Counted from the stretch's first letter, positions 16,486 through 47,829 are shown. The stretch is 64,000 bases of DNA from a virus (IMGVR_UViG_3300047160_004532:3416-67415), one strand, 5' to 3'. Program-made: numbers and translations. Notes: generated by a model not told the origin, from the sequence alone.

Positions 16486-16513
16486 TTCGGATACAATCGT
16501 GTCGAGGTGACAC

Positions 16514-17188: not shown

Positions 17189-17196
17189 GCGTGTGA

Positions 17197-18294: not shown

Positions 18295-19612
18295 ATTGTC
18301 TCTCGTAAAGGGCACCACGAGCAAGATGATCGATTTCTTCGTCCAGGACTCATCCAGCACCACGGGCGCGGGACTTACTGGACTAACGAGCGGCTCCTCG
18401 GGACTCACCGCCTATTACTATCGCGAGGGTGCAAACGCGTCCGTTTCGATCAGCTTGACGAGCGCGACCCTCGGCACCTTCACGAGCGCGGGATTCATCG
18501 TCGTGGACGGGACGAACATGCCCGGCGTTTACCAGTTGGGCATCCCTAACGCCGCGCTCGCTATCGGCGCCGCGAGCGTTGTCGTGATGCTCAAAGGCGC
18601 GACGAACATGGCCCCGGTGTTGATTGAAATCGAATTGACCGCCTCCGACAACCAGGATGGCGTGCGCTTCGGGCTTACGGCGCTTCCCAACGCCAACGCT
18701 TCGGCGTCCGGTGGCCTGCCAACCGTTGGAACCGGATCTGGACAAATCACGCTCTCTTCCGGCGCTGTCACAGCAGGCACGGTCAGTGACAAGACTGGGT
18801 ACTCCCTCACGCAGAGCTTTCCGACTAACTTCGCGTCCCTGGCTATTACGGGTGGCGGCGCCGTCACGGCCGGAACCGTGAGTGACAAAACCGGCTACAG
18901 CTTGACGCAATCCTTCCCTTCTAACTTCGCTTCTCTCGCTATCACCGTCGGCGGTGCCGTTACGGCGGGCACGGTAAGCGATAAAACCGGCTACTCGCTA
19001 ACCCAGACCTTCCCAACGCACTTCTCAATCCTTGCGATCGACGGGTCCGGAGCCGTGACCGCGGGAACGTTGGCCGGAACGCCGGCGAACTTCTCAAGCA
19101 TGGCGATCACTCCGGGGGGCGCAGTCACCGCTGGCACCGTGACCGATAAGACCGGGTACTCCCTGACCCAAGCATTTCCATCAAACTTTGCGTCGATGGC
19201 GATCTCCGGTGGCGGCGCCGTCACGGCCGGAACTGTCAGTGACAAGACGGGCTACTCCCTGACACAGAGCTTCCCGTCAAACTTCGCCACGATGTCGATC
19301 GACGGCAGCGGGCGCGTGACATACGCGCCAGGCGAAATGCAGATCAAGCGGAATGTCGGGTTCAACCACTTTCAATTCGTCCTCTTCAACAGCGTTGACC
19401 ACGTCACGCCGATATCCGGACTCACTGTCACCTCGCGTGTTTCAGTTGACGGTGCCTCCCCGGTTGCCACCGTCAACACCGCCAGTTCCCTCGCGAACGG
19501 CATCTACAACATCAACCTCGCCGCCGCAGACACGAACGGGACAACGCTAATGTTCGAGTTCACCGCAACGGGCGCGGACCCGACCTTCGTGAGGGTAATC
19601 ACCCAGGCCTAG
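18287..19612 (+). CDS. Virion fibre-like protein with internal 32-aa repeats
   Basis: Paralog of 16514 with inserted repeat stalk. Confidence 0.8.
   Translation: MAKLSLVKGTTSKMIDFFVQDSSSTTGAGLTGLTSGSSGLTAYYYREGANASVSISLTSATLGTFTSAGFIVVDGTNMPGVYQLGIPNAALAIGAASVVVMLKGATNMAPVLIEIELTASDNQDGVRFGLTALPNANASASGGLPTVGTGSGQITLSSGAVTAGTVSDKTGYSLTQSFPTNFASLAITGGGAVTAGTVSDKTGYSLTQSFPSNFASLAITVGGAVTAGTVSDKTGYSLTQTFPTHFSILAIDGSGAVTAGTLAGTPANFSSMAITPGGAVTAGTVTDKTGYSLTQAFPSNFASMAISGGGAVTAGTVSDKTGYSLTQSFPSNFATMSIDGSGRVTYAPGEMQIKRNVGFNHFQFVLFNSVDHVTPISGLTVTSRVSVDGASPVATVNTASSLANGIYNINLAAADTNGTTLMFEFTATGADPTFVRVITQA
18760..19320 (+). repeat. Coding tandem repeat, 96-nt unit
   Basis: GAVTAGTVSDKTGYSLTQSFPSNFASLAI, five full copies and one shortened; boundaries approximate. 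Confidence 0.9.
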
Positions 19613-20297: not shown

Positions 20298-20440
20298 AAC
20301 ACAACTGGGCACTTAAGCAAATACTCGGCGTGCCGTTCTGCATCATCTGCGGAATCGTCAAGCGCAAGTACGGTCAAAATAAGCCGTGCAAGGGGCCGAC
20401 CAAGATGCGAAAAATGGAGACGCCGATTGATAAGCGCTGA
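20294..20440 (+). CDS. 48-aa Cys-containing phage protein (not in ORF track)
   Basis: MKHNW...CIICGIVKRKYGQNKPCKG; TTGA overlap. Confidence 0.6.
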   Translation: MKHNWALKQILGVPFCIICGIVKRKYGQNKPCKGPTKMRKMETPIDKR

Positions 20441-20807
20441 CCAGATTGTCCTGCATGGCATCGGGGACTACGTTTTACAATCGGACTGGATGGCGACCGA
20501 GAAGACCAAGGGCCACTTCGCCGCGACGATGCACGCCTTGGTGTATTCGTTGCCGTTCATTGTTCTGGTGCCTTCCCCCGTCGCATGGTTTACCATTTTC
20601 TCGACCCACGAGATAATCGACCGATACCGACTAGCTCGTTATATTTGCTGGGCAAAAAACTGGCTCGGCCCGAACCGTCCATGGAGGGAATGCACCAAGA
20701 CCGGGTATCCCGAGGGGCGCCCAGACTGGCTAGCCGTGTGGCTGATGATTTTCGCGGACAACATTCTCCACATCGTCATAAACGGTATGGCTTTGAAGTA
20801 CTTGTGA
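20427..20807 (+). CDS. DUF3307-like membrane protein (moron)
   Basis: HGIGDYVLQSDWMA..K...HALVY...H..ID...ADNILH. Confidence 0.8.
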   Translation: MISADQIVLHGIGDYVLQSDWMATEKTKGHFAATMHALVYSLPFIVLVPSPVAWFTIFSTHEIIDRYRLARYICWAKNWLGPNRPWRECTKTGYPEGRPDWLAVWLMIFADNILHIVINGMALKYL

Positions 20808-20885
20808 TGGACACCACCGCGCGGCGCGTGGCCCAAAGAAGGGCGATATCGTGACCGTGGAAGGATGGATTGGAGCTTCGTACTA

Positions 20886-21344
20886 ATGGTCCCTTCTGAC
20901 GCCTGCTACAACCTCATCAAGCGGTTCGAGTCTTTTCAGCCGAACGCCTACCTTGATCCGGAGGGCATCCCGACCATCGGCTACGGCCATACCTATGGCG
21001 TCGTGATGGGCTTCACCTGCACCCAGGTGCAGGCCGACGACTGGCTGAAGTCGGACGTCAGTCTGGCTGATTCATTCGTCGGGGTCCAAGTCAAGGTTCC
21101 CCTCACGCAGGGCCAGTTCGACGCGCTGACGTCCTTCGTGTTCAACTGCGGGATTCAGGCGTTCGCCGAGTCGACACTCCTGCGAAAGCTCAATGCCGGG
21201 GATTATGCCGGCGCGGCGGCCGAGTTCCCTCGATGGGTCCACGGGAACGGGATGCGCGTCCTCGCGGGGCTAGTCACCCGGCGCGCGACCGAACGGATAC
21301 TGTTCGAGACCGGCACGCTGCCAGCACCGGGCAAGAAGCCTTGA
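20886..21344 (+). CDS. Endolysin, GH24 lysozyme
   Basis: E-8-D-5-T triad (FESFQPNAYLDPEGIPTIGYGHT), QFDALTSFVFNCG, GLVTRR. Confidence 0.93.
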   Translation: MVPSDACYNLIKRFESFQPNAYLDPEGIPTIGYGHTYGVVMGFTCTQVQADDWLKSDVSLADSFVGVQVKVPLTQGQFDALTSFVFNCGIQAFAESTLLRKLNAGDYAGAAAEFPRWVHGNGMRVLAGLVTRRATERILFETGTLPAPGKKP

Positions 21345-32459: not shown

Positions 32460-35400
32460 ATGGGATCGACCAACGGGTTCGACGTTGACAAGTTCCTGAA
32501 CTCAATAGGAAACCAATCACAGCCGCAGCAACCGCAAGCCCAGCCAGCAAGCGGGGGATTCGATGTCGACAGGTTCTTGGACTCGATAGGAAACACGTCG
32601 CCTTCCCCGCAGCCACAAGCTTCCGCGCCGGTACCACCGCCCGACCGCTACCCCGGACTTCCCAAGGCCGTGGCGAGTCCCTCCCTCGACGAGATGCCGT
32701 GGTATCAGCGCTACCCAGAGGAGTTGCGTCGACTCCTCATGGGCGAGCCCGGGCAGGACACGGCGATCGCGCACGCCCTCGGACAAGAGCAAGTCAAACC
32801 ACAATTCCAACCGCAACCATATGAGCGCCCCATTATCAGCTTTGAGGGGAGTCCGACACTCACCCGTGCGGCATTGACCTCGGTAGCTCCGACCTACGCT
32901 TGGTCCCCCGATCCCGATCTCGCGCGCGGAGTCGGCAAGGCCATGACCGGCATGACGACCGGACCCAACGTAGGGCTCCTTGTCGGGACAGCAGGACTCT
33001 CGGAACTACCGGTCCTCGGTCAGGCCGCGAATGCCTACTTCACCGAAGAGATGCTGCGGCAGGCCGCGCAGCAGGCCCCGCAGGTCAAGGAAGCGATGGA
33101 TCGCGGCGACTACGCGACGGCTAAGGAGCTGGCAACCGAGATGGGATTCAACCTCGCCATGGGAGGCGCGGGAGCGGTCCACGCGGTCAAAGGCGCGGCG
33201 AGGATCCCAGGTCAAATCCGGGAACTCGCCACGCGCGAGGCGCAAGCGAGAGGAGAATTCCGTCCGACGACTGGGCAACCGGCGCCGCCGCCGGCAGAAC
33301 CGGGTCCGACAACCGGCGTTCCGCCGCCGCAACCCGAGGCCGTCGAGCCGACGAAGACATCCCGCCCGGGTCCGAGGACGCCGGTTCCTCCGACTGCCGC
33401 CGCAGCTACGGTCCCCGAGGCACCCCAAACGCTGGACATCCAGTTCTCGCAACTCAACCAAGGACTACGGAAGGCCGTCATGGTCCCGAAGGAGAATGCC
33501 AGCTATCGGCCACCATCGCTTGAGCCTGGCATCTCCCGAAAAGCTGACCCTTACGGAAACATCTTCTACTACGACACTCAGCAGGGGGTTACGGCAGGCC
33601 AGGTTCTCGCCGCATCGAAGAATAACACTCTCCCCGAGCTTCTCGGCGGTCCGGGAGGCATGGGCGCGCCCGACAAGTCCGTGCTGCCGCCGAACGCGCC
33701 TGTCGTCACGGCCAAGGCAGCAGACGGGACCGAGGTTCAGTCGACGGCGACAACGCCAGAACGGGTAGGCGAAACGGCAACCGCCACGCAACCGCTGGTT
33801 CCAGAAGGGGGAGCGCTCGAAGTCAAGGCGCCGCAGGAAGCCATCCGGGACCGGCTGGCAGCTCCGGGAGAATCTGTGCCGGCCCCGAACATTTCGACGA
33901 TTGAGCCCACTGTACCACCAAAACCGGGTCAAGAGCTATTCCGTGGTGCGTGGGAGGTGCCTCTCAACGAGAAGGGTGTCGCCGAGGCGCAGGACGCCGC
34001 CCAGCGAACCGCCGGCATGTGGGATGAGATACACGCTAGCCCGATGGGGCGAGCGCAGGAAACGGCTGGAATCGTCGCAGGGACGAACCCGCAGGCGGTC
34101 ATCCACCCGCCGAATCCGGCATTAGCGCCGTGGACTCTAGGCGAGCACGAGGGGAATGCCGTCACGCCCGAGCGGATCGCCGACCTGAACGACCACATCG
34201 TAAACCGTCCAGACGAACCGCTGGGCGGTGTGGGCCAACATTCCGGCAGGCCGGGCGAGAGCTTTAACGACTTCTTCCATCCACTCATCCGCCAACTGCT
34301 GGACGAGGTGCGCGGGTATCAAGAGGGGCAACGGATTCTCAACGTCACCCACTACCGGGACATTCGGGCGATCCAGGCCGCGCTCCGCGCCGAGCATGGT
34401 GAACCCTTTGACGCCGATTTCATGACGGCGAAGGGCGACGAGAAGCCGGGGGATCTCTTCTACTTCGATACGCACACCGGGGATCTAGTCCCGGCTACGG
34501 ACGCTTCGAAGCCAGGAATTTACTTCCTTCGCCACGGCGAGACGATGGCAAATGAGGGGGCGGGAAGTCAAGGGGTAAATCGGGGGCAAATCGGTGGTAA
34601 ATCGGGGGGGATTGGTCCTCCATCGCCCGAAACTCTCGGCGCTCCCGCGCCACTCGGTGGGGAGATTCCCGCGAATATTCGCCCGGAGACGGTGCCTGCT
34701 TCGCGACAACTCGCCGCGCCCGCGCCCTTGGGCGAAACGACCGGGACACCCCCGCCGCCGCGACCGGACGCCTTCAGCCAGTTTCTGACGTCCGAGGAGG
34801 GGTCGTTCAACCCGCAATTCGTCAAGGACGCCCTCGCCGAACCGATCGCCCTCAAGACCAAGCGCGATCAGATGATGAACTTCCTGAAGGCGCGCGAAGG
34901 GACGCCCAGCCAGAAGAAAATGGGCCAGCGCGCGATTGAGTACCTCGTCGGCCAGCGAGACTGGTTCCTCACCAAGTCGATGCAAATTCTCGACATGGCA
35001 AAGAAATTCGTTCCGGACGAGAATGAGCGGAAAGCGCTCGCCCTGATGCGCGACTTCCAGAATCGCCCGGGCGAACTGAAGCAATGGCGCGACCTGACCC
35101 ACCCGAACCTGTACCACGTAGGACGCGGACAGGCGGGACCGGCGAACCTAGACGCCGTCAAGCGAATCGAAGCGCTACGGCCCGTCATCGATCTCGCCTT
35201 GAATCCAACGCCAGGGATGCAGCGTGCCAACATTGTCCTCGACAGCTTCTCTAATCTGACCCTCGCTGTCGGCAAGAAGCTCGGCTGGTTGGACTCGCGC
35301 CTGACCCCCGAGGAGTACGTTCCCCACATTCTTGACTCGAGGGAAGACGTCTTGGAGAATCCGTATACCCAGGAACGGGCGACCGGATCGGCCGTCGCCG

Positions 35401-37262
35401 GCAAGATTAGCCGCAGTTTCGCCCACGGGAAGGAACGTAAAGCCTACGATACCCTGCTCGACGCCATCGCGGACGGTGCCAGGCCGAAGACCCTCGACGC
35501 GATTGACGCCTTCAGCGTCTACGCGGATAAGTTCTCAACGAAGCGTGCCACGGAGATGTGGAAGGACACCATGCTCCAGAACGGTTTCGCGAAGTGGGGG
35601 GGTATGGACAGGCCGGTGGAGGGATGGGAAGTCTTCGCGCCGCAGGGCAACCTGTTCAAGATTCCGTACGCACGGCTGAACAAAAAGGGCGAACCAGTGC
35701 CGGGACTTCAGCAACTCTGGGGGCCAAAATTCATGGTCGATGCCATGAAGCCGGTCACGGACCCGAACTACATGCTCAGGATGCCGTGGCTCCAGAAAAC
35801 CTATCTCTGGCAGCAGTACGTCAAGTCGATCAATCTCGCGTGGTCCTTCTTCCACCCGAAGGCACTCGAACTTATGGCGGCGTCGAACATGGGTCCGGAG
35901 GGGACCTACCGTGCCCATATGCTCGATCTCGACTCCAAGGACGCCAAAGATCTCGAGCAGGATGGCGCAATGCACGGGCTCACGACCGCAATTCAGGGTA
36001 AGGTGATCGATGCCTACCGCCGCCTCGCGCCCGGATCAATCCCGCACTGGGGCGAAATCATCACGAGCGCACCGGGCCTGAAGCAAATGAACAAAGTTGC
36101 CGAGGCCACGACGGAACTGACCTTCGGCGTCATGCAGAGGAAGTTCAAGATCTGGGATTACGGCCGCCAGACGGCGAAGTGGATCGCGGATCATCCGAAC
36201 GCCACGCCGCAGGAGCTTTCTGACGCCAAGACCTCGATCGCGCGCCAAGTGAATGCCGTCTACGGAGGCCTGAACTGGGAAACCCTCGGCTGGAGTCGCC
36301 AAGCTCTCACTCTCGCTCGCCTTGGATTGCTCGCGCCGGACTGGACGTTCTCGAACTTCATGAACGTGGGGCAGGCATTCGAGGGCGGCTGGAAGGGTGC
36401 CACGCACCAAGCCGCCAAGGCGGTCGGCATTAATGCCCCGAAGTCATGGGAGTCAAGCCCTGCCGGAAACTCCGCGCGCTTATTCTGGATCCGAACCATG
36501 CTGGGCGGTATCGCAGCGACCCAACTGATGAGTGTTGCCCTCACCGGAAAGCCCTCAAAACGGCCCACGCAGGTCTACCTTGGCACCGACCCGGAGGGGA
36601 AAGAAGTCTATCAGAACTGGTTCTTCGCGGGCGCGCCAGGCGACCTCGTCAACATGATGAGCAAGATGAAGGAAGGCGGCGGGTTCCATGGTCCGGCAAT
36701 GTGGCTCGCCAACAAGCTCACGCCGATCACGAGGGCCGCTCTGCAGCAGTACACCGGCAAAACATACGTCGGCAAAGACATCGCCTCCAAGGATATGGAC
36801 TTCCTGCCGAAGACTGTCCGGCAGGGGGCCTATGCTCTACGCGAAATCTCGCCGATCCCCTTCTCGGCCTCTAGCGCCTACGACATGCTCACCAGCGGCG
36901 GTCCGGAGCGCAAACCCGTCGAGTATATTTCTACCCTCCTTGGCGGGCAGCCAGCCTCTCACGTTGTGCCCGAGGGCATGAAGATGACCTCCAAGGGCTT
37001 GCGTCCCGAGAAGCCAAAGACCAAAATCAGCCAATTCCAGCAAATGTGGAGCGGTCGGGTATACGTCCCTGAAGCAAAGAGCTTGGAGCGAATGGACCTC
37101 ACGAACGCCTTACGCGCATACGATTCGGTTTCAGATGCGGACCGGGAGAAACTCAAGGCCATCATGCGCGGGAAGGTCTACCGTGCGCGCTCCCAGCCGA
37201 GCCAGTGGACCCCGGACGCCAAGAGTCTCGCAATGAAGCATTTCAATGTAGGTCCGTACTGA
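32460..37262 (+). CDS. Large ejection-type protein (1600 aa) with embedded permuted histidine phosphatase domain
   Basis: Duplicated GFDVD.FL.SIGN N-terminus; PLNEKG, SPMGRAQETA, GES, VTH and RHGET motifs at 33930-34556. Confidence 0.75.
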   Translation: MGSTNGFDVDKFLNSIGNQSQPQQPQAQPASGGFDVDRFLDSIGNTSPSPQPQASAPVPPPDRYPGLPKAVASPSLDEMPWYQRYPEELRRLLMGEPGQDTAIAHALGQEQVKPQFQPQPYERPIISFEGSPTLTRAALTSVAPTYAWSPDPDLARGVGKAMTGMTTGPNVGLLVGTAGLSELPVLGQAANAYFTEEMLRQAAQQAPQVKEAMDRGDYATAKELATEMGFNLAMGGAGAVHAVKGAARIPGQIRELATREAQARGEFRPTTGQPAPPPAEPGPTTGVPPPQPEAVEPTKTSRPGPRTPVPPTAAAATVPEAPQTLDIQFSQLNQGLRKAVMVPKENASYRPPSLEPGISRKADPYGNIFYYDTQQGVTAGQVLAASKNNTLPELLGGPGGMGAPDKSVLPPNAPVVTAKAADGTEVQSTATTPERVGETATATQPLVPEGGALEVKAPQEAIRDRLAAPGESVPAPNISTIEPTVPPKPGQELFRGAWEVPLNEKGVAEAQDAAQRTAGMWDEIHASPMGRAQETAGIVAGTNPQAVIHPPNPALAPWTLGEHEGNAVTPERIADLNDHIVNRPDEPLGGVGQHSGRPGESFNDFFHPLIRQLLDEVRGYQEGQRILNVTHYRDIRAIQAALRAEHGEPFDADFMTAKGDEKPGDLFYFDTHTGDLVPATDASKPGIYFLRHGETMANEGAGSQGVNRGQIGGKSGGIGPPSPETLGAPAPLGGEIPANIRPETVPASRQLAAPAPLGETTGTPPPPRPDAFSQFLTSEEGSFNPQFVKDALAEPIALKTKRDQMMNFLKAREGTPSQKKMGQRAIEYLVGQRDWFLTKSMQILDMAKKFVPDENERKALALMRDFQNRPGELKQWRDLTHPNLYHVGRGQAGPANLDAVKRIEALRPVIDLALNPTPGMQRANIVLDSFSNLTLAVGKKLGWLDSRLTPEEYVPHILDSREDVLENPYTQERATGSAVAGKISRSFAHGKERKAYDTLLDAIADGARPKTLDAIDAFSVYADKFSTKRATEMWKDTMLQNGFAKWGGMDRPVEGWEVFAPQGNLFKIPYARLNKKGEPVPGLQQLWGPKFMVDAMKPVTDPNYMLRMPWLQKTYLWQQYVKSINLAWSFFHPKALELMAASNMGPEGTYRAHMLDLDSKDAKDLEQDGAMHGLTTAIQGKVIDAYRRLAPGSIPHWGEIITSAPGLKQMNKVAEATTELTFGVMQRKFKIWDYGRQTAKWIADHPNATPQELSDAKTSIARQVNAVYGGLNWETLGWSRQALTLARLGLLAPDWTFSNFMNVGQAFEGGWKGATHQAAKAVGINAPKSWESSPAGNSARLFWIRTMLGGIAATQLMSVALTGKPSKRPTQVYLGTDPEGKEVYQNWFFAGAPGDLVNMMSKMKEGGGFHGPAMWLANKLTPITRAALQQYTGKTYVGKDIASKDMDFLPKTVRQGAYALREISPIPFSASSAYDMLTSGGPERKPVEYISTLLGGQPASHVVPEGMKMTSKGLRPEKPKTKISQFQQMWSGRVYVPEAKSLERMDLTNALRAYDSVSDADREKLKAIMRGKVYRARSQPSQWTPDAKSLAMKHFNVGPY

Positions 37263-37288: not shown

Positions 37289-37708
37289 ATGAGACGCAAG
37301 TTGACCGCCGCAGCGTTCGCGCTCCTGCTTCTGTCCTCGCAACTGTTCGGGGCCTTCACTGTCATCAACCGCACGTCGAAGTGGTGCCCGCAGTGCGGGT
37401 CGAGCTACTCGTATGGGGGTCCGTTCGAGGTCTATTGGCAGCCGGTTCCGATGGTCCTGACGAGTCTGGCAAACAACAATAACGACATCCGGTTGATCGC
37501 CATCACCCTCTATAACTCGAACGTCGCCAGCGTGACGATCACCTTCCAGACGAAGGACTCGTCACCTTACCCGTTGCCCCTGAGCGGTCCGATAGCGTCG
37601 GGAACTAGCGTTTCGTTCAACATGCCAGCCGGGCTGCTTTGTCACAATGGAGCGAGCATTCAGGCGAGCGATGCTGGGGTTTACTTCTCAGGTCAATGGA
37701 CAAATTAG
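37289..37708 (+). CDS. Signal-peptide protein, beta-sandwich-like
   Basis: MRRKLTAAAFALLLLSSQLFG-A; TACAAT 7 nt before ATG. Confidence 0.75.
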   Translation: MRRKLTAAAFALLLLSSQLFGAFTVINRTSKWCPQCGSSYSYGGPFEVYWQPVPMVLTSLANNNNDIRLIAITLYNSNVASVTITFQTKDSSPYPLPLSGPIASGTSVSFNMPAGLLCHNGASIQASDAGVYFSGQWTN

Positions 37709-37716
37709 TGCCTCTT

Positions 37717-40700
37717 ATGAAACCACTCGCGAAGTTCCTTCTACTGGGAGCGCTCTTTGCTTGGTTCGGCAAAGACGGCGCCGCACAGATCCAGCCCTAC
37801 CCTGGCGGTGGGGGCGGCGGCGGTGGGAGTTCGCCTTGCATTGTGTCGGGCGGGCAGACGACCGGGTACGTCCTCACGGCAACCAACTCCGGAAACCAGT
37901 GTTCCTGGCAGACAGTCGGCTCGCCGTCCGTCGACCAGAATACGGTCAAGAACGCTTGGTTTCTGAACGACACTGGTACGGCTAATGCGATCACCGGAAC
38001 CACGACGACGACCTACCCTGGCGCGTACGCCAAGGGGCAAACAGTCATCCTCATCAAGGCCGCATCGAATACCGGCGCGGTGACGATCAACATCAATTCC
38101 CTCGGCAACAAAGCCGTGACAAAGAACGGGACCAACCCGCTCACCGGCAGCGAAATGATGATCGGCGTGCCTTACATGCTGATCTACGACAACACGGAAT
38201 TCCAAATCGTCGCCGCGGCCGGCGCGTCCATCCCCGTCACGTCGAACCTGATAGGCGGCGATGGCGCGGGAGGACTTAGCGCGACGTCCATTCCGCCTGC
38301 CAATGTCATCGTCTCGACGGGTTCCTACAATAATCCACCGTGGATCGTGACCCTCGCGGGTAGCAAGATCAATACGGCGATCCCTTGCGGAAGTATGCCC
38401 AGCCTCACCGGGGACGTCAGCAACACGTCCTGCGCGACCCAAGTGCTCGCAACTCACCTCTCCTCACCTCTTCCCGTAAACCAAGGGGGCACCGGCACCA
38501 CGAGTCCAGGAATCGTCGGAGGGACCAACATCACCATCACGGGGACGTGGCCGAGCCAGACCGTGACCTCGACGGCGGCCGGAAACGGCTCCTGTACGAA
38601 TCAGGTCGTCACCGCAACCGTCAGTGCGGCCGCGCCGACATGCACGACCCTCACGTCCGTCTACGTCAACACATCCATCGCAATCACGGGCGTTGACATC
38701 AACACTTCGAGCCAGGTCACCGTTACTCACCTGTCATCACCCCTCCCAGTCAACCAGGGGGGCACGGGCACCACGTCACCGGGACTCGTCGCCGGAACCA
38801 ACGTGACGATTACCGGAAGCTGGCCGAATCAGACGATCAATTCCACTGGCGGCGGTGGCGGCGGAACGATCCCCGTCACGACGAACGTACTTAAGGGCGA
38901 CGGCGCGGGCAACGCCGCAGATAGCGGAATCGGGGTCAGTTCGAACACCGGGAAAGCCTCCTCGATCGACTTCCTGAACGGTACGGCCCTCGGCGGCATA
39001 CCCGCGCACTCCTTCCGACTGGAGGCACCCGCCTCGATCTCTGCCTCTTATGCTTGGCATCCTCCCGCTGCGGACGCCGCAGGATTCATTAAGAGCGACG
39101 GCTCCGGGAACCTCTCAATCGTGACCATCGGGGGAACCTGTACGAACCAAGTGGCAACCGCGATCGGCTCGACTGCCGGGGCACCGACATGCACGACGAT
39201 CACTAGCAGCTACGTGAATAATACGATCGCCATTACCGGCGTTGACATCAATGCCAGTAGCCAAGTCCAAGCGACCCACCTCTCTTCCGCGCTCCCAGTG
39301 AACCAGGGCGGCACCGGGACCGCGAGCCCAGGCTTAGTCGCCGGAACCAACATAACGATCACTGGCTCATGGCCGAATCAAACCATCAACTCCAGTGCTG
39401 GCGGCGCTGGGACCGGCAGTTGCACAAATCAGGTCGTGACGGCTGTCAACGTCGGCGCGCCAACATGTACGACGATCACGAGCAGCTATGTCAACAACTC
39501 AATCGCGTTGACTGGGGTCGATATCAACACCAGCAATCAGGTGACGGTAACGCATCTCGCCTCGGCGCTCCCAGTTCTCCAGGGAGGCACAGGGACCACA
39601 ACGCCCGCCCTGGTCGCCGGCACCAACATCACGATTACCGGGAGTTGGCCGAATCAGACAATCAACTCGACCGCCGGCGGCGCTGGAACCGGCGCTTGTA
39701 CAAACCAAGCGGTTACAGCGGTGAACACCGGCGCGCCAACGTGTACAACTCTCACCTCCGCTTATGTGAACTCGAGCATTGCCCAGACCGGCGTTGACAT
39801 CAACACCTCGTTCCAGGTCACAGCGACCCATCTCGCATCGGCGCTTCCAGTGAATCAGGGGGGCACCGGGACGACGTCGCCGGCGATCGTCGGTGGCTCC
39901 AATATCACCGTTTCGGGGAGTTGGCCCGGGCAGACAGTCGCGATCAGCACCTCCGTTGTCCAGGGATCGACGTCCTTCGCGGGGGCGCCGTTCACTTCCT
40001 CAAGCGCTGGCTCCTACAACAACACCAGCGACTACTCGCCGGTAGCCGGGCTCATGGGGTCCGGGGCAAGCTCGGCGATCGCGGTGAAGAACTACTTCCA
40101 CCCGGCGTCGGAAAGCCTCATCCGTGAGAGCGGCGTCGTCGGGGCGGCCATTACAACGACCGGGGACTCAAACTGGGAGACGGACGGCGTCGTCGGGATG
40201 GTAGTGTCGAAGTCCAAGACCACTGGGTCCGTCGCTGGCAGCTTCTTTGCCGCGGCCATCGCGACCACGAGCCCACCTGTCACGGTCTGGTCAACCAATT
40301 TGCTTGTCCAAGACGTCGACAAGACGAACACGACATGCACGGGGCAGTACCAGAATTGGTGTCACTACGCAGCCAATCTCATTAGCGAAGAAATCGACGC
40401 CAACGTATACGATACGGGCACATCTTACAGCGGGACCAACTACGGGATCACCTATCTGAACGGGCACACGTCGACCCCGACAAGTGCGATTCTCTTCAAC
40501 GAGCCAGGATCGCTGGGTAGCCCCAACGGGAATTTCTTCGACAACGGCATTTATTCAAATGATTTCGCGACGGACGTATTTGCCCATATCGGGCGCGGAC
40601 AGACAGTCTCGACGGCCTCGCAGTTCATCGACTTCACCTCTGGCGGCTCCAGCCAGTACAACACGCGCATGTGGAACAGCGGAACCGGACTCTTCGTCAT

Positions 40701-41124
40701 CCTGCCAGGTCAGACGAGCGCGAATACGAACACCTTTCTGCTCGACACTAGCGGAAATATGTTCCTCGATTCCGGCAATTTTGTTTTCGGTCTGTCCAGC
40801 AGCCATCACGTCGCGGAACTGACAAGCGCGATACCGTCAGGTAACGGCACCGGGCTCACCTTCAACGCCCAAAACGTTTCCGGGACGTGGACCGCGCTAC
40901 TTACCTCCAACCGCGCCGCCCTCATTGAGATGGCGAACGGAGGCATCGATTTCTCGGCCACGACAGGAACGCAGACGTCGGGCGTGGCGTTGAGCGGCAC
41001 GGTAAAGATCATGCACCTCGACGCGGTCGGCAGTAACGGCTGGCTGATCCTCGCTACCTCTTGCTCTGGAGTTCCTTCCGGGGCCATTTACAACAACGGC
41101 GGAACGCCAGCAATCTGTCCGTAA
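37717..41124 (+). CDS. Tail-fibre-like repeat protein with signal peptide
   Basis: MKPLAKFLLLGALFAWFGKDGAA-Q; ASNTGAVTININSLGNK fibre domain; five LPVNQGGTG repeats. Confidence 0.8.
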   Translation: MKPLAKFLLLGALFAWFGKDGAAQIQPYPGGGGGGGGSSPCIVSGGQTTGYVLTATNSGNQCSWQTVGSPSVDQNTVKNAWFLNDTGTANAITGTTTTTYPGAYAKGQTVILIKAASNTGAVTININSLGNKAVTKNGTNPLTGSEMMIGVPYMLIYDNTEFQIVAAAGASIPVTSNLIGGDGAGGLSATSIPPANVIVSTGSYNNPPWIVTLAGSKINTAIPCGSMPSLTGDVSNTSCATQVLATHLSSPLPVNQGGTGTTSPGIVGGTNITITGTWPSQTVTSTAAGNGSCTNQVVTATVSAAAPTCTTLTSVYVNTSIAITGVDINTSSQVTVTHLSSPLPVNQGGTGTTSPGLVAGTNVTITGSWPNQTINSTGGGGGGTIPVTTNVLKGDGAGNAADSGIGVSSNTGKASSIDFLNGTALGGIPAHSFRLEAPASISASYAWHPPAADAAGFIKSDGSGNLSIVTIGGTCTNQVATAIGSTAGAPTCTTITSSYVNNTIAITGVDINASSQVQATHLSSALPVNQGGTGTASPGLVAGTNITITGSWPNQTINSSAGGAGTGSCTNQVVTAVNVGAPTCTTITSSYVNNSIALTGVDINTSNQVTVTHLASALPVLQGGTGTTTPALVAGTNITITGSWPNQTINSTAGGAGTGACTNQAVTAVNTGAPTCTTLTSAYVNSSIAQTGVDINTSFQVTATHLASALPVNQGGTGTTSPAIVGGSNITVSGSWPGQTVAISTSVVQGSTSFAGAPFTSSSAGSYNNTSDYSPVAGLMGSGASSAIAVKNYFHPASESLIRESGVVGAAITTTGDSNWETDGVVGMVVSKSKTTGSVAGSFFAAAIATTSPPVTVWSTNLLVQDVDKTNTTCTGQYQNWCHYAANLISEEIDANVYDTGTSYSGTNYGITYLNGHTSTPTSAILFNEPGSLGSPNGNFFDNGIYSNDFATDVFAHIGRGQTVSTASQFIDFTSGGSSQYNTRMWNSGTGLFVILPGQTSANTNTFLLDTSGNMFLDSGNFVFGLSSSHHVAELTSAIPSGNGTGLTFNAQNVSGTWTALLTSNRAALIEMANGGIDFSATTGTQTSGVALSGTVKIMHLDAVGSNGWLILATSCSGVPSGAIYNNGGTPAICP
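38450..39940 (+). repeat. Five coding repeats of about 90 aa
   Basis: THL.S.LPV.QGGTG..SP..V.GTNITITG.WP.QT plus CTNQ..TA....APTC spacers; boundaries approximate. Confidence 0.85.
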
Positions 41125-41131
41125 GGAGCCT

Positions 41132-41440
41132 ATGAAAACCATCCTAGCCACCCTCATAATCCTTGGGTCACTTTCCGGAATTATTTACGACGCCAAGGTA
41201 AACGCGGCCGAGATCGAAAAGAAGAGTCCGCCGCCCAAAGATCTCAGCGACACCCAGCGGAAGCAACTCTACCGCGCCTATGCCGATTATGTGGCGGCGC
41301 AGGCGAGCGCGGATAAACTCAAGATCGAACTCGACAAGGTCCAAGCCGAAATGAAGGCATTTTGCGGTGGGGAGATTCAGGAAGCTGCGGATCGCGACAT
41401 TCACTGCAAACCGGAGCCGCCGAAGGAAGCTAAGAAATGA
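41132..41440 (+). CDS. Signal-peptide coiled-coil protein with one Cys pair
   Basis: MKTILATLIILGSLSGII; AFCGG...IHCKP; AAGGAG RBS. Confidence 0.75.
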   Translation: MKTILATLIILGSLSGIIYDAKVNAAEIEKKSPPPKDLSDTQRKQLYRAYADYVAAQASADKLKIELDKVQAEMKAFCGGEIQEAADRDIHCKPEPPKEAKK

Positions 41441-42480
41441 AACGCGCCACTCTCATCGTTACGCTGGGCCTTATCTTCATCTACGCGACGATATGGATTG
41501 CCCTTCCGCAGACTCCGGGGATCAACCTCAATCTGTCCGGCGGCGGCGGGGGCGGCGGCGGAAGTCTTGACTTCCAGAGCAACTCCGTGTCCCTTGGGAC
41601 GATCACCGCGCTCAACATCGTGCCGGGCACGGGCGTGACAGCAACGCCGACGAACCCAAGCGGAACAGGCAACCTTCAAATGTCACTGGATACGGCTTAC
41701 GCGCCGAGTAAGGCCAATCTCCAGAGCGCAACGAACCCGCAGATTTGCACTTCGGCATCGATGAGCGGCACCGCGTACACGGCAACTTGCGCATATACCT
41801 TGGGAGCCTACGCTGCAAAGCAGACTTTGTACTGGTATGCGGACGTTACCAACACAAGCACCACGCCAACATTGAACATTGACACGCTGGGCAACAAGAC
41901 CCTCGTGAAACTGGGCGGCGGCGCCCTAGCCAACAACGACATTAAGGCCGCATCGCTCTATCGCATCTGGTACGACGGAACGAACATGGAGGTGGTTGAG
42001 GCGGGACTTGGAGGAGGTTCTTCCGCTCCGTACTCTCTCAGCAAGGGATACACATCAATTTCTTCGGGTGGTAGTCCGGTAGCCGTTTATTCGGTCACTA
42101 TGCCCGCATTATCTACTGGGAACTGTAGGCAGATAAACTTTGAGGTTGGCGGGTCAGTTAGTGGAGCTTCAATCTCGGCTGTTATTGGTGGGACGGTCAC
42201 ATGGGTAGCTGATGCTGCATTCGGTGGATCTGGAACTAATTATGCTGGTTATACATTACAGCTATGCAATGATGCTGGAGTGCAGAATGCCCAGCATACG
42301 ACCGTAATATCTTCATTTTATAATCTAGGAGCTGGGCCTGTCCCATATGGTGGGGCATCAACTACAGCCACTCCCCTAACCTCATCTCTGAATTTTGCCA
42401 CCACGCAGACGCTTGTAATCAATGTGAGCGACTCGGGAACGGCATACGGATACGCACTTTCTATAGCCGACACTCAATAA
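41437..42480 (+). CDS. Tail-fibre-like protein with N-terminal signal/anchor
   Basis: MKRATLIVTLGLIFIYATIWIALP; TNTSTTPTLNIDTLGNK...IWYDGT fibre domain. Confidence 0.75.
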   Translation: MKRATLIVTLGLIFIYATIWIALPQTPGINLNLSGGGGGGGGSLDFQSNSVSLGTITALNIVPGTGVTATPTNPSGTGNLQMSLDTAYAPSKANLQSATNPQICTSASMSGTAYTATCAYTLGAYAAKQTLYWYADVTNTSTTPTLNIDTLGNKTLVKLGGGALANNDIKAASLYRIWYDGTNMEVVEAGLGGGSSAPYSLSKGYTSISSGGSPVAVYSVTMPALSTGNCRQINFEVGGSVSGASISAVIGGTVTWVADAAFGGSGTNYAGYTLQLCNDAGVQNAQHTTVISSFYNLGAGPVPYGGASTTATPLTSSLNFATTQTLVINVSDSGTAYGYALSIADTQ

Positions 42481-42481
42481 G

Positions 42482-45400
42482 ATGAAATCACTCTATATTT
42501 TGTTATCGGCGGCGTCACTATCGTTTGGCGGTCAATCGGTACACCTGGATACCGGATATCCCAGCAATTCATCTATGACGACTGCCTCTCGTCATCGTCT
42601 TGAGTTCTACCTTCACGACTGGACTAACACCGGGATCGAGCATCTTAAGGGCGGGTCTGATGCAACTGGATGGGTGATCTACATTCAAGATGGAATCGTG
42701 ACGATCTACAACCCTTGGGAGACTGGTGCTCATCCTTCCGATCCCATAGCGGTTGACCTGCGATCAATTAGTCCACAGGCGGTATATTTCAGGCTTCAGC
42801 GTCAATACCAAACGAACACTGATTCCTATGAGGCTTGGGATATACACGGGAATAGATTCTTTTTCATAACTGTAACCTACACCGGAGACAGCCCTTCTGG
42901 TACGGGTTTTATATGGGGGGATGGATCGAATGGTGCGCCTATGTGGGCAGGATGGGTGAGGACACACTCAACAATTCTTCCGATCAATTCTAGGCCACCA
43001 ACGACAGTTGACAATCCCAATCGATTGATCGAATGGAAGTTTGACGGCAGTTTGGCTGACTCTGGACCTAACGGCTACACGGCCACATGGAGTAGCGGCA
43101 GCCCTACGTATGAAGCAACGCCGTACCAGAATGTTGTCGCGGTCTTGAGGACTAGTAATGCCAACACTTGGGCAAATACTCTTTCACAGCGTGCTGGATA
43201 TGCCGCGACTCTCGACGGAACCGGAAGCTACAGCCAATCGGACACGTCGAATGCGGTCACATGCTTCTGGCAGGAACTGAGCGGTCCCACACTGGCCCTG
43301 TTCGACAGTCACACGAGTTGCAATCCGAATCTAACCGGGCAAATATTCGGAGACTATCTGCTACAAATGGAAGCTGTAGACGACCGCTCGATCACTGCCC
43401 TCGCAAGCAATCACATCGGTTGGGTGGCTACGGACGACAACTCGGTTGTCGTTCAGCCAACAAGTGTCGCAAACGCGGATGCCCTTTATGGTCCCATGCC
43501 TGCTTGGGGCACAAGCCCCTGGGGCTACTACGATTACTTTCACAACAGGGGCATGACACTCCGAACAATTGACTATGCTCTGCCAATCAATCCATTTTTC
43601 GGCTTCCCGGTTCCGATGACTTATCCAGGATGGTCATCTCTGCAGTGGGAACAATATGGCAGCGGAACAGTAAGCTGGTTTTGGAACGGGATCGGCACTG
43701 GACTTGGCAATCAGAGTGTTACCCCAAAGGGAACTACCCTAGCCGGAAATCTTGGGAATAATCCTGTAACTGATCTGACGATATCCGTTGTTGATGCGAC
43801 ACAGTTGGATCTTTCCGAATTCCCCACTAGAATTCTTCTGTACACTGGGAGTGGTGATCCCGAGGAGGTCAGAATTTGCAGTAGCTCAGGAAATACACTG
43901 AATGTCTGCTATGACGGACGAGGACCTAACATTCAGTCTTGGACAAGTGGGCAGATAGTTGCTCAGGATAAGGTAACTGGCACGGGTACACACTTCGTTA
44001 CCGATTCTAATTCTGCAATATGTCCAGTTGGAGTACCGTCTCCCCCAGGTCCATCCTTTTTTTCCACTGGCACAATTACACTGACTCATTCCTCAACAAC
44101 AGCTACCCTATCGAGTGACGCCCACTGGTACGGTTTTACTTCAGCGCAATTCAACCCAGCAGGGAAGAATGACTTCTACCTGCGGGCTGCAGCTACACAT
44201 GGAGGAACCCCGTTCTATTTCATTACTAGGATGAACACAGGGGGAGCTGAGGCAGAGGCCTCTAATATAATTGGGGGAGTAATCCAGCCCGGAGGAGTTG
44301 TACCTATTGCCGGGGATACTTATGGTCAGAATTACTATGCAGGCTTCGTTGATGTTGTGGTTACCGACCCAACCGGCTCAGGAGCCGATATCACAGCTAA
44401 CGTTACGTCGGGAAACATTGTTACTTATACCGTGAATAACGGTGGAAGCAATTACACGAGTCCGACAGTCTGGATTTATCCACGTAAAGTACTTCTTTCG
44501 CGTCCATTTCCATCGGACGCAGATGATGGAAGCTATTCCTACACACTACTACCAGGAACCAGGACAGTTACCCTGTTCAGTCCAACCTATCCAGATACTA
44601 CGGGTAAAGGATTGGCGATGTGGGGAACCTCGGGCTGTGAATCGGAAACATCCCTGTATCTGAATCCTCTGTCACCAGCACAGATTAATAGTCTGAATAA
44701 TGCCTTTGGTTATGATTCCCCACACAATGGGCAACTTATCAGTGGATTGCAGTATTCCGTAACAGACACATCTGGATGGATTAACAACGGGGGACTTGGA
44801 GGTGAATTCTTTTATGGAGAGAATATGGCCTCGGAAGTCCTGTACCTCCGATCGGGATTGGATGCTGCCAAAAGTGCGTCATCGATTGTGTCCGACCACA
44901 TATTGCAGTCTCCATGGATGTACATAGTATCAAGCAACTTGCTTTCACTCGGTGGTCCTGCGATCGGGGCGGTCAATCGTCTGATAACGCAGAATAACCC
45001 ATCTGATCCGAGATGGCCGCTTGCTCGGCAGATGTTCAACCGTGGCGCTCAGGAAATCGAGTATATGACAACGTACGGATGCAACTCTGACGACACTCGT
45101 GACTTGGGATATGGTCAGGCGCTTTTGGTTCTTGGGATGCTATACGATCCTGATCCGACATGGAAGGCACATTGGCAGACTTACCTGACAGATATGGAGG
45201 CTATTGATACATCCTGCCATGGTTCTGACAACTCTTGGTCTAATGGGGGAATTTGGAACTCTGTCGGAGGTTGCGGTGCGGGAGGTACAAACCCTTGCGC
45301 CCCTCTGACAATGACGGATGGGTCTGCCGTAGTTACACCATATGGGAGTCTCACGTCAATCGCATCCGGCATGTGTATGGGAACGGCATACGGCAGCGGA

Positions 45401-46660
45401 ACAGTAACTAATGGATCAGCGTCTTTCTCGATCACTAGCACTACTGCAGGAACATTGGGGGCTGCAAACGACTTTGTTCTTAATGGCACGCAATCAGGTG
45501 GATCACAACCCCTTACTCTTGCCCTCCAGTTCAACGGGAGCGGCCCGTATAATCTTGCCGCATACTGGCCTGGAGATTCCGGCACGGTCACCTGGATGTC
45601 CTATACAGGTGGTCAGGCTAACGGGTGGAATCAAATGGCCTTTGCTCACTGTGCTGGGTATCCAGGTCTATGCGGAGGATCGGGACAGGGAAATAATGAT
45701 AAGGTCAACTTATCTCGGAACTACATGTGCTACCAACAAGATGCAACCCACATCATATTGGATCGGCCATGGAAGGAACCCGGCTGCACAGGTGGGATAG
45801 TTTGCGGTAATGATTACGCGAGTTACGGGGCGGGGAACGTGGTGGGATTTGGGCAGTTGCCATACATGTTGGGGATTAAGAGTTATGCAATGGGATTGCT
45901 AGCTCGATCAAGCCTGTCTCCATACAACTCTGACTACCAAACATTTTTAGATGGGGCCACTCAGTGGATCCACGATAACGGGATAAACGCAAACGATCAA
46001 ACGGTGCCATATGGACAGACATACCAATTCTGCGCCACGAGTTGGCTGGTGCTGCCGAACCTTTCGACGCTATTTGACTACAAAACGGACGGCTGTACGG
46101 CTGGGGCCAGCCATTTTGGAGTGGGAGGAAACCGAGAACAAATCGGAGAGTTGAGTAACGCTATTTCAGATTTTTACTTATCTAACCAAAGCCCAACTAA
46201 CAAGACATGGGCTGACACTGTGACTGGGGCACTCTGGGGAAATCCTCTCTTTAATACCGGGGGAGTCTATTATGACTCTAATTCGAGTGCGGCCGACCCC
46301 GCAGCGTTCAACATGAATGATGGGGCTATAAACGAGGGGAAATGGTATGGGTTCTTCACCGGGATGAGTTTCGCCCACCGCTGGATCGCCCAGCGGCTCG
46401 AGAATCCGGCTCCTGCGGCCCCGGCAACGCGAACGATCAAGGTTCCGTTTACCTGTTCGGGAATCACCGGCTGCGCAAAGGCCAAGATGACGGTCACCCA
46501 ACCGACCGGAGATTCTGCCTCGTACACCTGCACCAGTTCGCCGTGTTCGCTCACCAGCCTGGCGGGCATCGGGTCCGCCTTGTTACAGATCCAATACCTC
46601 ACGTCAGGGAACGCCGTTCTGACGACCGGCGATCCGCTTCCGCTATATGTCGGCAGGTGA
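42482..46660 (+). CDS. Large signal-peptide adhesin/receptor-binding-like protein (LamG-like and PKD-like domains)
   Basis: MKSLYILLSAASLSFG; WKFDGSLADSGPNG; LDGTGSYS...FWQELSGP; many Cys pairs. Confidence 0.75.
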   Translation: MKSLYILLSAASLSFGGQSVHLDTGYPSNSSMTTASRHRLEFYLHDWTNTGIEHLKGGSDATGWVIYIQDGIVTIYNPWETGAHPSDPIAVDLRSISPQAVYFRLQRQYQTNTDSYEAWDIHGNRFFFITVTYTGDSPSGTGFIWGDGSNGAPMWAGWVRTHSTILPINSRPPTTVDNPNRLIEWKFDGSLADSGPNGYTATWSSGSPTYEATPYQNVVAVLRTSNANTWANTLSQRAGYAATLDGTGSYSQSDTSNAVTCFWQELSGPTLALFDSHTSCNPNLTGQIFGDYLLQMEAVDDRSITALASNHIGWVATDDNSVVVQPTSVANADALYGPMPAWGTSPWGYYDYFHNRGMTLRTIDYALPINPFFGFPVPMTYPGWSSLQWEQYGSGTVSWFWNGIGTGLGNQSVTPKGTTLAGNLGNNPVTDLTISVVDATQLDLSEFPTRILLYTGSGDPEEVRICSSSGNTLNVCYDGRGPNIQSWTSGQIVAQDKVTGTGTHFVTDSNSAICPVGVPSPPGPSFFSTGTITLTHSSTTATLSSDAHWYGFTSAQFNPAGKNDFYLRAAATHGGTPFYFITRMNTGGAEAEASNIIGGVIQPGGVVPIAGDTYGQNYYAGFVDVVVTDPTGSGADITANVTSGNIVTYTVNNGGSNYTSPTVWIYPRKVLLSRPFPSDADDGSYSYTLLPGTRTVTLFSPTYPDTTGKGLAMWGTSGCESETSLYLNPLSPAQINSLNNAFGYDSPHNGQLISGLQYSVTDTSGWINNGGLGGEFFYGENMASEVLYLRSGLDAAKSASSIVSDHILQSPWMYIVSSNLLSLGGPAIGAVNRLITQNNPSDPRWPLARQMFNRGAQEIEYMTTYGCNSDDTRDLGYGQALLVLGMLYDPDPTWKAHWQTYLTDMEAIDTSCHGSDNSWSNGGIWNSVGGCGAGGTNPCAPLTMTDGSAVVTPYGSLTSIASGMCMGTAYGSGTVTNGSASFSITSTTAGTLGAANDFVLNGTQSGGSQPLTLALQFNGSGPYNLAAYWPGDSGTVTWMSYTGGQANGWNQMAFAHCAGYPGLCGGSGQGNNDKVNLSRNYMCYQQDATHIILDRPWKEPGCTGGIVCGNDYASYGAGNVVGFGQLPYMLGIKSYAMGLLARSSLSPYNSDYQTFLDGATQWIHDNGINANDQTVPYGQTYQFCATSWLVLPNLSTLFDYKTDGCTAGASHFGVGGNREQIGELSNAISDFYLSNQSPTNKTWADTVTGALWGNPLFNTGGVYYDSNSSAADPAAFNMNDGAINEGKWYGFFTGMSFAHRWIAQRLENPAPAAPATRTIKVPFTCSGITGCAKAKMTVTQPTGDSASYTCTSSPCSLTSLAGIGSALLQIQYLTSGNAVLTTGDPLPLYVGR

Positions 46661-46760: not shown

Positions 46761-46943
46761 ATGAACCTCTGGATAAATCTTGGACTCCAACTCGTCGGCG
46801 TCGTTGGGAATTTCCTCGCGACATCCAACGGTGCGATCCCGGCGAAGTGGTCACCCGTCATCAGCGCGGCACAGGCCGTTGTCGGCGTTATTGCGCACTA
46901 CTACAACACCGACGGGACGCCGCAATCCGTTGCCAAACAATGA
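46761..46943 (+). CDS. Putative holin
   Basis: 60 aa, two hydrophobic segments, polar tail; AAGGGAG RBS. Confidence 0.6.
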   Translation: MNLWINLGLQLVGVVGNFLATSNGAIPAKWSPVISAAQAVVGVIAHYYNTDGTPQSVAKQ

Positions 46944-47238: not shown

Positions 47239-47787
47239 ATGGCCGCAGCTCAGGCGGTGCTAGTTGAAATGCCCTCAATTCGCCGGGATGACCAACAAAC
47301 TGACCTAGGAAAAGTACTGGGCGGCCTGCAGTCTCTAGAAACCCTTGTTGTCGAACAGCACGCAACACTGCGTACGCAGTTCGGGTTCTTGAAAGAGGGA
47401 GTCGACGAACTCTCGCGGACGATCAAGGAAAAGGCGGATCGCCGAGAATTGAAGGAAATCAGGGACGAGCACAGGGTGAGTTTAGCTGAGGTCAAGGCGG
47501 AATCGGCATTCACTGCCGGTAAAATCGCGAAAGAGGTCACGGATAAGCTCGAGGCCGAGGCCGAATCTTTTGCCGAGTTTCGCGCGTCGTTGCTCGAAAC
47601 CATGCGCGAGTTCAAGGAAGAGACAAACGCGCGCCTAGATAAACTCTCCGAGGAAGTCAAACTCCACGAGGGCCTCAAGAATCGCGTCCACGGGGGATGG
47701 GTCATGGCCGGCACGATCGGCGCGGCAATCGTTGCCACGCTGGGGTTCCTTTTCTCCGTCCTCTCATTTCTTACTAAGAAGCCATAG
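47239..47787 (+). CDS. Coiled-coil protein with C-terminal transmembrane helix
   Basis: Heptads then GGWVMAGTIGAAIVATLGFLFSVLSFL. Confidence 0.75.
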   Translation: MAAAQAVLVEMPSIRRDDQQTDLGKVLGGLQSLETLVVEQHATLRTQFGFLKEGVDELSRTIKEKADRRELKEIRDEHRVSLAEVKAESAFTAGKIAKEVTDKLEAEAESFAEFRASLLETMREFKEETNARLDKLSEEVKLHEGLKNRVHGGWVMAGTIGAAIVATLGFLFSVLSFLTKKP

Positions 47788-47794
47788 AAACCTA

Positions 47795-47823
47795 TTGACG
47801 CTAACGACGGTATGTGTTAGTGT
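47795..47823 (+). promoter_or_regulatory. Early promoter with overlapping inverted repeat
   Basis: TTGACG-17 nt-TAGTGT with TGn extension; ACGCTAAC...GTTAGTGT palindrome. Confidence 0.7.
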
Positions 47824-47829
47824 CTTTGT

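Follow-up and report, generated by a model that had tools for sequence, protein, structure and literature searches.

Five Consecutive Genes with Putative Signal Peptides

The window analyzed here is a 64,000-nucleotide stretch (IMGVR_UViG_3300047160_004532:3416-67415) of a 67.4-kb virus record in IMG/VR, a linear metagenomic contig estimated to be 74% complete, which is derived from an uncultivated soil-type phage, probably one of Acidobacteria. We examined a block of five consecutive plus-strand genes, designated p1 to p5, which a first-pass annotation had described as exported fibre- or adhesin-like genes. p1 (37289..37708) encodes a small beta-rich protein of 139 amino acids with a predicted signal peptide (MRRKLTAAAFALLLLSS followed by cleavage before Q), and p2 (37717..41124) encodes a fibre protein of 1135 amino acids. 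p3 (41132..41440) encodes a 102-residue protein with a predicted signal peptide (VNA|AE); its mature part is helical and charged, and the protein contains one cysteine pair (residues 78 and 92). p4 (41437..42480) encodes a short fibre of 347 residues, and p5 (42482..46660) encodes a predicted secreted, glycanase-like protein of 1392 residues with 22 cysteines, a GC content of 0.50, and a third-position GC content (GC3) of 0.50. The gene directly upstream of the block (32460..37262, plus strand) encodes a 1600-residue ejection-type protein with a histidine-phosphatase domain (His_Phos_1, E 6e-16; phrog_12933). In T7, the fibre gene gp17 follows the genes for the internal or ejection proteins, and in a gene order like that of T7, the place after the 1600-residue protein is the fibre position. 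The start of p1 is the first ATG past the stop codon of this gene, p2 starts 8 nt after the p1 stop codon, p3 is preceded by an AAGGAG site, p4 overlaps the p3 stop codon (ATGA), and p5 starts 1 nt past the p4 stop codon.

Sec signal peptides have, at the extreme N-terminus, a positively charged n-region and then an uncharged hydrophobic core of about 7-16 residues; they were sought with a crude rule, and cleavage sites were read by eye and by regular expression. The five open reading frames (ORFs) were present as first annotated, and all five N-termini contain K or R followed by an uncharged hydrophobic core with a best 11-residue Kyte-Doolittle mean of 1.8-2.7; as also claimed earlier, the upstream structural genes lack such N-termini, the corresponding mean being below 1.6 in every structural gene from 15466 to 37262. 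The rule flagged eight of the 72 genes, and five of the eight were these consecutive genes. A run of at least five flagged genes occurred in 0.025% of 200,000 gene-order shuffles (p ~2.5e-4), and 12 of 293 decoy ORFs (4%) were flagged. A positive n-region, a core of 12-16 residues, and small residues at -3/-1 were found in p1, p2, p3, and the p5 family. The predicted cleavage sites are LSS|Q in p1, GAA|Q in p2, VNA|A in p3, and SLS|F or SFG|G in p5, for which the family site is AFA|GQS. Gln stands at +1 in p1, p2, and most p4 relatives and at +2 in the p5 family, and p3 has no Gln there. Lipoprotein signals were ruled out, as Cys was at +1 in none of the five cleavage regions.

The five proteins are also rich in cysteine, with 47 Cys in 3115 residues (1.5%) compared with 34 in 7964 residues (0.43%) in the upstream structural proteins, and most of these residues form close pairs, in agreement with the initial description. 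The 16 Cys of p2 make up eight pairs spaced 8-21 residues apart, and p3, p4, and p5 have even numbers of Cys. The motifs NTGAVTININSLGNK, CSGITGC, and CTSSPC are all present; LPVNQGGTG occurs five times and CTNQ...APTC four times in p2.

Conservation of the Signals and Host-Type Cleavage Sites

The N-terminal module of p2 (signal, AQ, Pro/Gly linker, Cys loop, and ININSLG domain) was kept in 15 clusters with differing C-termini, and Q24 after the signal was invariant. Nearly all of the 49 homologue clusters of p4 carry a signal, typically with an AFG|Q or LLA|Q end. The N-termini of p5 relatives read M..LLL..AFAGQS, a pattern with which residues 1-31 of p5 align; the public gene call for p5 begins at Met32 and omits the signal (42482-42574), indicating that automatic start calls can hide signals. 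Most of the 14 family representatives of p1 also have signal-like N-termini. No relative of p3 turned up in the fetched loci, and no search aimed at its homologues was made. Because the signals are conserved in homologues, mis-called starts can be excluded for p1, p2, p4, and p5, and the possibility raised at the outset that the true starts lie downstream is contradicted for these four families. Export of the five proteins is well supported by these sequence features and is very probable.

A large part of these signals resembles those of the likely host group. Sampling of about 300 kb of two Bryobacterales genomes, G001 (L153-L172) and G006 (L181-L183), showed a small-x-small-Q motif directly past the hydrophobic core in 23 of 44 signal-like N-termini; among control windows the motif was present in 23 of 210 (odds ratio 8.9). 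The signals of p1, p2, and much of the p4 family end in small-x-small|Gln, like most of the sampled Bryobacterales signals (A-x-A|Q). The Q-rule has been described as exclusive to Bacteroidetes (PMC5837995, PMC10653852), and no description of it for Acidobacteriota was found in the literature. The A-x-A|Q signals in the Bryobacterales genomes suggest that the rule may extend to this order and is not confined to Bacteroidota. Phage proteins of Porphyromonas gingivalis also follow the Q-rule; their function is unassigned, and the authors suggested that they may modify the host outer membrane (PMC10367356). They are similar to the proteins studied here in that removal of their signals is predicted to leave a Gln at the N-terminus, in line with the habit of the host signal peptidase (PMC10367356, PMC10653852), but they were not described as fibres, and their host belongs to Bacteroidota rather than Acidobacteriota.

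Domain Composition of the Five Proteins

Searches of Pfam and PHROGs gave nothing significant for p1 to p4, and a PKD domain alone for the p5 family. The first-pass annotation had recognized tail-fibre hallmarks in two of the proteins, and for p2 and p4 this was borne out by the motifs, by sequence identity, and by structural matches. In p2, the signal (GAA|Q) leads into a linker of eight Gly and a Cys loop. An ININSLG fibre domain (residues ~85-165) comes next, and between it and a C-terminal domain lie five LPVNQGGTG repeats together with CTNQ..APTC pairs. Residues 108-182 share ~40% identity with part of the tail fibre annotated in Pseudomonas phage Lauda, and the LPVNQGGTG/SWPNQTIN repeat is present in 128 viral contigs. 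p4 consists of a hydrophobic N-terminus, a linker of eight Gly, a fibre domain in which the cysteine pair C104/C118 is invariant across the family, and a C1q/TNF-like knob. The structure model of p4 is confident at residues 100-190 only; residues 92-190 match a tail-fibre chain in the structure of Pseudomonas phage Pa193 (Z 9.0 over 94 residues), and C1q/TNF-like jelly rolls were the matches for residues 193-347 (Z 8-10). In addition, p4 had 158 matches among the BFVD viral models, several of which are named tail fibre. The p2 and p4 family profiles had no match among Protein Data Bank (PDB) sequences, and the p4 profile found no relative in the viral contig collection. Both their sequences and their folds show that p2 and p4 are composed of genuine tail-fibre domains. 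The run of eight Gly stands shortly after the signal in p2 (37804-37827), in p4 (41539-41562), and in the p4 relative P0003, and in many relatives a short Cys-loop module (C..G..C..G.W) follows it.

p5 begins with a signal and an N-terminal beta domain, after which come the PKD domain (residues ~242-311) and an (alpha/alpha)6 barrel into which beta domains are inserted; a beta sandwich forms the C-terminal part. The model of residues 320-1392 had a predicted local distance difference test score (pLDDT) of 75 and a predicted template modelling score (pTM) of 0.71. When compared by VIA-align, the barrel matched the GH105 protein YteR, GH88, GH76, PL26, and other lyases over ~310 residues (Z 17-18, root-mean-square deviation ~4 A), a moderate margin over the stated baseline of Z ~14 for helical models. 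Foldseek comparison of the p5 model with the PDB gave weak matches of the same (alpha/alpha)6 kind, and the p5 sequence matched none of the CAZy-type Pfam families. At the level of fold, p5 thus looks like a glycosidase or lyase of the six-hairpin (alpha/alpha)6 type. The ESM Atlas gave no usable lead for either p5 or the C-terminus of p2.

GC3 declines along the block, from 0.76 in p1 and 0.75 in p2 to 0.66 in p3, 0.57 in p4, and 0.50 in p5, and the C-terminal 233 residues of p5 share 81% identity with the product of a gene (L002:2-703) on a phage contig with a GC content of 0.50. Because of this identity and because the GC3 values of 0.57 and 0.50 differ from 0.75, p4 and p5 appear to have been exchanged recently as a cassette. 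The L002 relative of the p5 C-terminus stands immediately ahead of packaging genes.

For the two small proteins, a CxxC is present at residues 33-36 of p1 and varies across the family; a role for p1 as a thiol oxidoreductase was ruled out because this motif is not kept. The small ORFs next to the p2-like genes of G006 and L106 were also rejected as p1 relatives (hhalign probability <1%). The mature part of p3, which has no Pfam match, contains LSDTQ, a sequence that resembles the LTXXQ motif of the periplasmic chaperones Spy and CpxP. The initial suggestion that p3 may be an exported chaperone would draw on this single motif and on the topology of the protein.

Relatives in Phages

Related viral contigs were read for about 10 kb on each side of their fibre genes, and the survey of related phages that had been suggested as a check recovered the same layout, in which ejection-type proteins are followed by one to four signal-bearing fibre-like genes, in L036, L073, L083, and L106. 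In L036, Pro/Gly-rich proteins are followed by a run of four large genes that all bear signals, and L083 has two signal-bearing fibre-like genes with lysis genes after them. In L106, a p2-like gene and a GDSL esterase gene with clear signals, together with two more genes with hydrophobic N-termini, stand ahead of a recognized endolysin gene. The L106 esterase (L106:12653-13390; GDSL/SGNH, Pfam E 3e-17, in a PHROG family named "tail protein") lies within the fibre block and, judged from its sequence, could be an exported appendage protein of the deacetylase type. The fourth contig (L073:1422-12373) has a GC content of 0.39 and encodes a 1893-residue protein of the same histidine-phosphatase PHROG family as the ejection protein of the window, followed by three small genes and a signal-bearing protein of 1204 residues that matches a tail-fibre PHROG. 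The presence of this layout in low-GC L073 indicates that it spans very different hosts.

Signals are found in a minority of the p2-type fibres. Among 77 complete fibre ORFs with the p2 repeat, about seven start with signals, all ending in AQ or GQ, and the rest have ordinary fibre N-termini. In a small sample of p2-fibre relatives, the Cys content was 1.3% in signal-bearing and 0.37% in signal-less proteins (n = 6 and 90, respectively; p 0.019).

Relatives in Bryobacterales Chromosomes

Genes similar to p4 and p5, both with signals, are adjacent on at least 12 nonviral contigs and in one Bryobacteraceae genome, and p5 homologues occur on contigs of up to 507 kb named Bryobacteraceae or Bryobacterales. 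As p2-, p4-, and p5-like genes were found in Bryobacterales genomes and contigs, the host of the phage is likely a member of this order of Acidobacteriota. By Pfam, the neighbors of the p4-/p5-like loci encode a Polysacc_synt flippase, a UbiA prenyltransferase with an FAD-binding partner, and GNAT acetyltransferases; further neighbors, read from their translations, are sugar-transferase- and glycosyltransferase-like genes. The secreted pair (p4-like, ~560 residues; p5-like, ~1260-1330 residues) thus lies within polysaccharide biosynthesis loci (L003, L008, L009, L018, L022, and others). A complete Bryobacterales genome of 8.76 Mb encodes a signal-bearing p2-like protein of 1203 residues one gene away from an MBOAT acyltransferase gene (L182:380-3988 with L181:17790-19181, both on the minus strand). 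No phage-like genes were seen in the 60 kb around this locus, as judged from the ORF list and two Pfam matches.

The chromosomal pairs share their families, their signals, and the p4-p5 adjacency with the phage. They differ from it in that no phage genes surround them, the loci matching no other gene of the phage, and in that the p4-like proteins are longer and have other C-terminal domains.

Proposed Export Route and Alternative Explanations

We propose, with a probability of about 0.42, that the five genes form a host-surface recognition and glycan-cutting module that is sent out through the host Sec pathway, with p2 and p4 docking on virions at lysis. Late in infection, the five proteins would cross the inner membrane via host Sec and have their signals removed; they would then be oxidized by host Dsb and gather in the periplasm or on the envelope. 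Particles built in the cytoplasm would meet these exported proteins only once the membrane is breached at lysis, and we lean toward the view that p2, and probably p4, would dock on the tail at this moment. p5 would act as a depolymerase of exopolysaccharide (EPS), either docked or free. The signals have probably been retained because proteins of these families can fold only outside the cytoplasm; the relatives on host chromosomes are secreted proteins of polysaccharide loci. Taken together, the signals and the cysteine pairs suggest that the host-recognition and sugar-cutting proteins of this phage are most likely made outside the cytoplasm, the compartment in which the particles are built. 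The docking step is favored by the location of the block at the fibre position, by the conserved N-terminus and variable C-terminus of p2, and by the recurrence of the layout. The original suggestion of exported fibres therefore stands with respect to export, given the conserved signals of the signal peptidase I type, and is held less firmly with respect to addition to virions at lysis, against which a role outside the virion has to be weighed.

Several observations speak against docking. In 45 of the 46 viral loci with an ININSLG domain, this domain is preceded by a conserved N-terminal domain of ~100 residues (MARNGSGTY...) and there is no signal; L106 is the only one of the 46 with a p2-type signal. 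The signal of p2 therefore stands where its signal-less relatives carry the conserved domain, and it is possibly through the latter that these fibres are attached to the tail. In p2 itself, only the linker and the Cys loop (~60 residues) separate the signal from the ININSLG domain, and no N-terminal tail-attachment domain was recognized in p2 (no Pfam match). The p2, p4, and p5 families appear also to work as secreted cell proteins in polysaccharide loci. The hydrophobic stretch of p4 is 20 residues long and is followed by no good cleavage site, in contrast to the AFG|Q and LLA|Q sites of its family; from the length of this stretch and the poor site, the N-terminus of p4 may stay membrane-anchored as a signal anchor. 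Fibre-like candidates without signals, with weak fibre or LamG matches, lie upstream at 15466-19612. Finally, XepA of PBSX is an exported late phage protein that is absent from particles (PMC6834076).

Only slightly less probable than docking is the possibility that the five proteins are exported but never enter the virion. The proteins would then act on the envelope of the infected cell itself, or free, by stripping or masking EPS or the receptor, like XepA or a receptor-destroying enzyme, so that progeny would not be trapped, superinfection would be blocked, or the matrix around neighboring cells would be cleared; the true virion fibres would be signal-less, for example those at 15466-19612. 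The signal-bearing cellular homologues with no phage genes nearby, the lack of a recognizable attachment domain in p2 where its relatives have one, and the appearance of p4 and p5 as a recent cassette swap all fit such a role, as do the absence of the exported XepA from particles (PMC6834076), the weak fibre or LamG matches of upstream genes, and the suggestion that the Q-rule proteins of P. gingivalis phages may modify the host outer membrane (PMC10367356). However, the block is tightly coupled to the structural genes and follows the ejection protein, and in several other contigs all of the fibre-like genes seen at the fibre position, within the ~10 kb read on each side, are signal-bearing. 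Moreover, the conserved N-terminus and variable C-terminus of p2 are the pattern of a virion fibre, and lysis would free the enzymes even if they had no signal.

Export itself would be called into question if the N-termini served as membrane tethers, assembly handles, or trimerization helices and the proteins were folded and assembled in the cytoplasm. All characterized tail fibres, to our knowledge, assemble in that compartment, and the hydrophobic core of p4 is as long as a transmembrane helix. In addition, one study took the lack of a signal peptide as a hallmark of the phage target proteins of diversity-generating retroelements (PMC6199706). Nevertheless, we consider this explanation improbable, because the n-regions, cores, and -3/-1 residues of p1, p2, p3, and the p5 family have the form of cleavable signals, the Gln past the cleavage site is invariant in the p2 family, the cellular homologues carry the same signals, the host-type motif is shared, and paired cysteines would be hard to use in a reducing cytoplasm. 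Least probable of all is an artefact in which the starts were called too far upstream or host DNA was joined to a phage contig. The database call of p5 at Met32, which drops the signal, and the linear, incomplete, metagenomic nature of the record could be taken in its favor, but the residues before Met32 align with the signals of homologues, as do the N-termini of p2 and p4, and the starts are coupled to the preceding stop codons. Phage genes also flank the block on both sides, the gene for the ejection protein preceding it and genes for a RecE-like exonuclease, a RecT-like protein, and a helicase following it beyond 47991, which places the five genes inside the phage genome.

A broader and more speculative form of the proposed docking of exported fibres, which we regard as possible but rather doubtful, is that a widespread set of tailed phages, infecting hosts whose signal peptidases cut before Gln (Acidobacteriota and Bacteroidota), build their particles in two compartments and exchange modules with the proteins of host polysaccharide loci. 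The head and tail would form in the cytoplasm, and the entire recognition apparatus (fibres, knobs, glycanases, and esterases) would be exported by Sec, lose its signals, acquire disulfide bonds in the periplasm, and become attached to the tail only once the membrane opens at lysis.

Comparison with Known Systems

p2 and p4 resemble T7-like gp17 and the fibres of Lauda and Pa193 in their position after ejection proteins, in the ININSLG domain and the LPVNQGGTG repeat, and in having a conserved N-terminus and a variable C-terminus. They differ from these fibres in that they start with a secretion signal, followed by a Gly linker, a Cys loop, and paired Cys. XepA (XkdY), the "PBSX exported protein" of the lytic cassette of Bacillus subtilis PBSX, had a weak fold match to the knob of p4 (Z 6.9); however, besides its absence from particles, it forms a pentameric dumbbell, has no fibre repeat, and comes from a monoderm host. 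Sec-exported endolysins and signal-anchor-release (SAR) endolysins (Lys44 of phage fOg44 and P1-type SAR lysins) are likewise phage late proteins that use host Sec, and they stay outside the cytoplasm until the holin acts (PMC6116005), but they are lysis enzymes rather than fibre or adhesin proteins and have no known link to virion assembly. No description of Sec-exported tail fibres was found in the literature, in which endolysins (PMC6116005) and XepA are the late proteins of phages known to be exported.

The assembly of tailed phages is a wholly cytoplasmic process in the textbook account. If fibres and depolymerases are routinely exported, an extracytoplasmic branch of assembly has gone unrecognized, and oxidative folding may be required for the receptor-binding proteins of phages from soil and gut, which would bear on their expression, on host-range engineering of laboratory phages, and on host prediction. 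The link to chromosomal polysaccharide loci further suggests that phages and their hosts trade proteins that bind or cut host surface glycans.

Flanking Genes

Upstream of the block, the gene for the large terminase lies at 2601-4715. An endolysin gene (20865-21344; Phage_lysozyme, E 2e-44), the only recognized lysis enzyme gene, lies in the middle of the structural module and adjoins a DUF3307 gene (20427-21344 for both, plus strand); DUF3307 is presumably a family of membrane proteins. Attempts to name the fibre-like genes at 15466-19612 yielded no identity, and the 1600-residue ejection-type protein had no close relative in the viral contig collection. No convincing terminator was seen between the structural genes and the block, although terminator-like matches were no commoner than in shuffled sequence.

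Downstream of the block, a 60-residue ORF (46761..46943, plus strand) with two hydrophobic stretches had been taken as a holin gene, with the block placed directly before it. This placement could not be confirmed as given: the ORF matched no holin family, or any other family significantly, in Pfam or PHROGs, and the endolysin gene is not adjacent but 25 kb upstream; its two hydrophobic stretches are compatible with an unclassified holin. The next gene (47239..47787, plus strand) encodes a coiled-coil protein of 182 residues, without a family match, that has a C-terminal membrane anchor, and a terminator-like hairpin (47797-47824) directly follows this gene, the last of the operon. The topology of this coiled-coil protein recalls that of XhlA of the PBSX lysis cassette.

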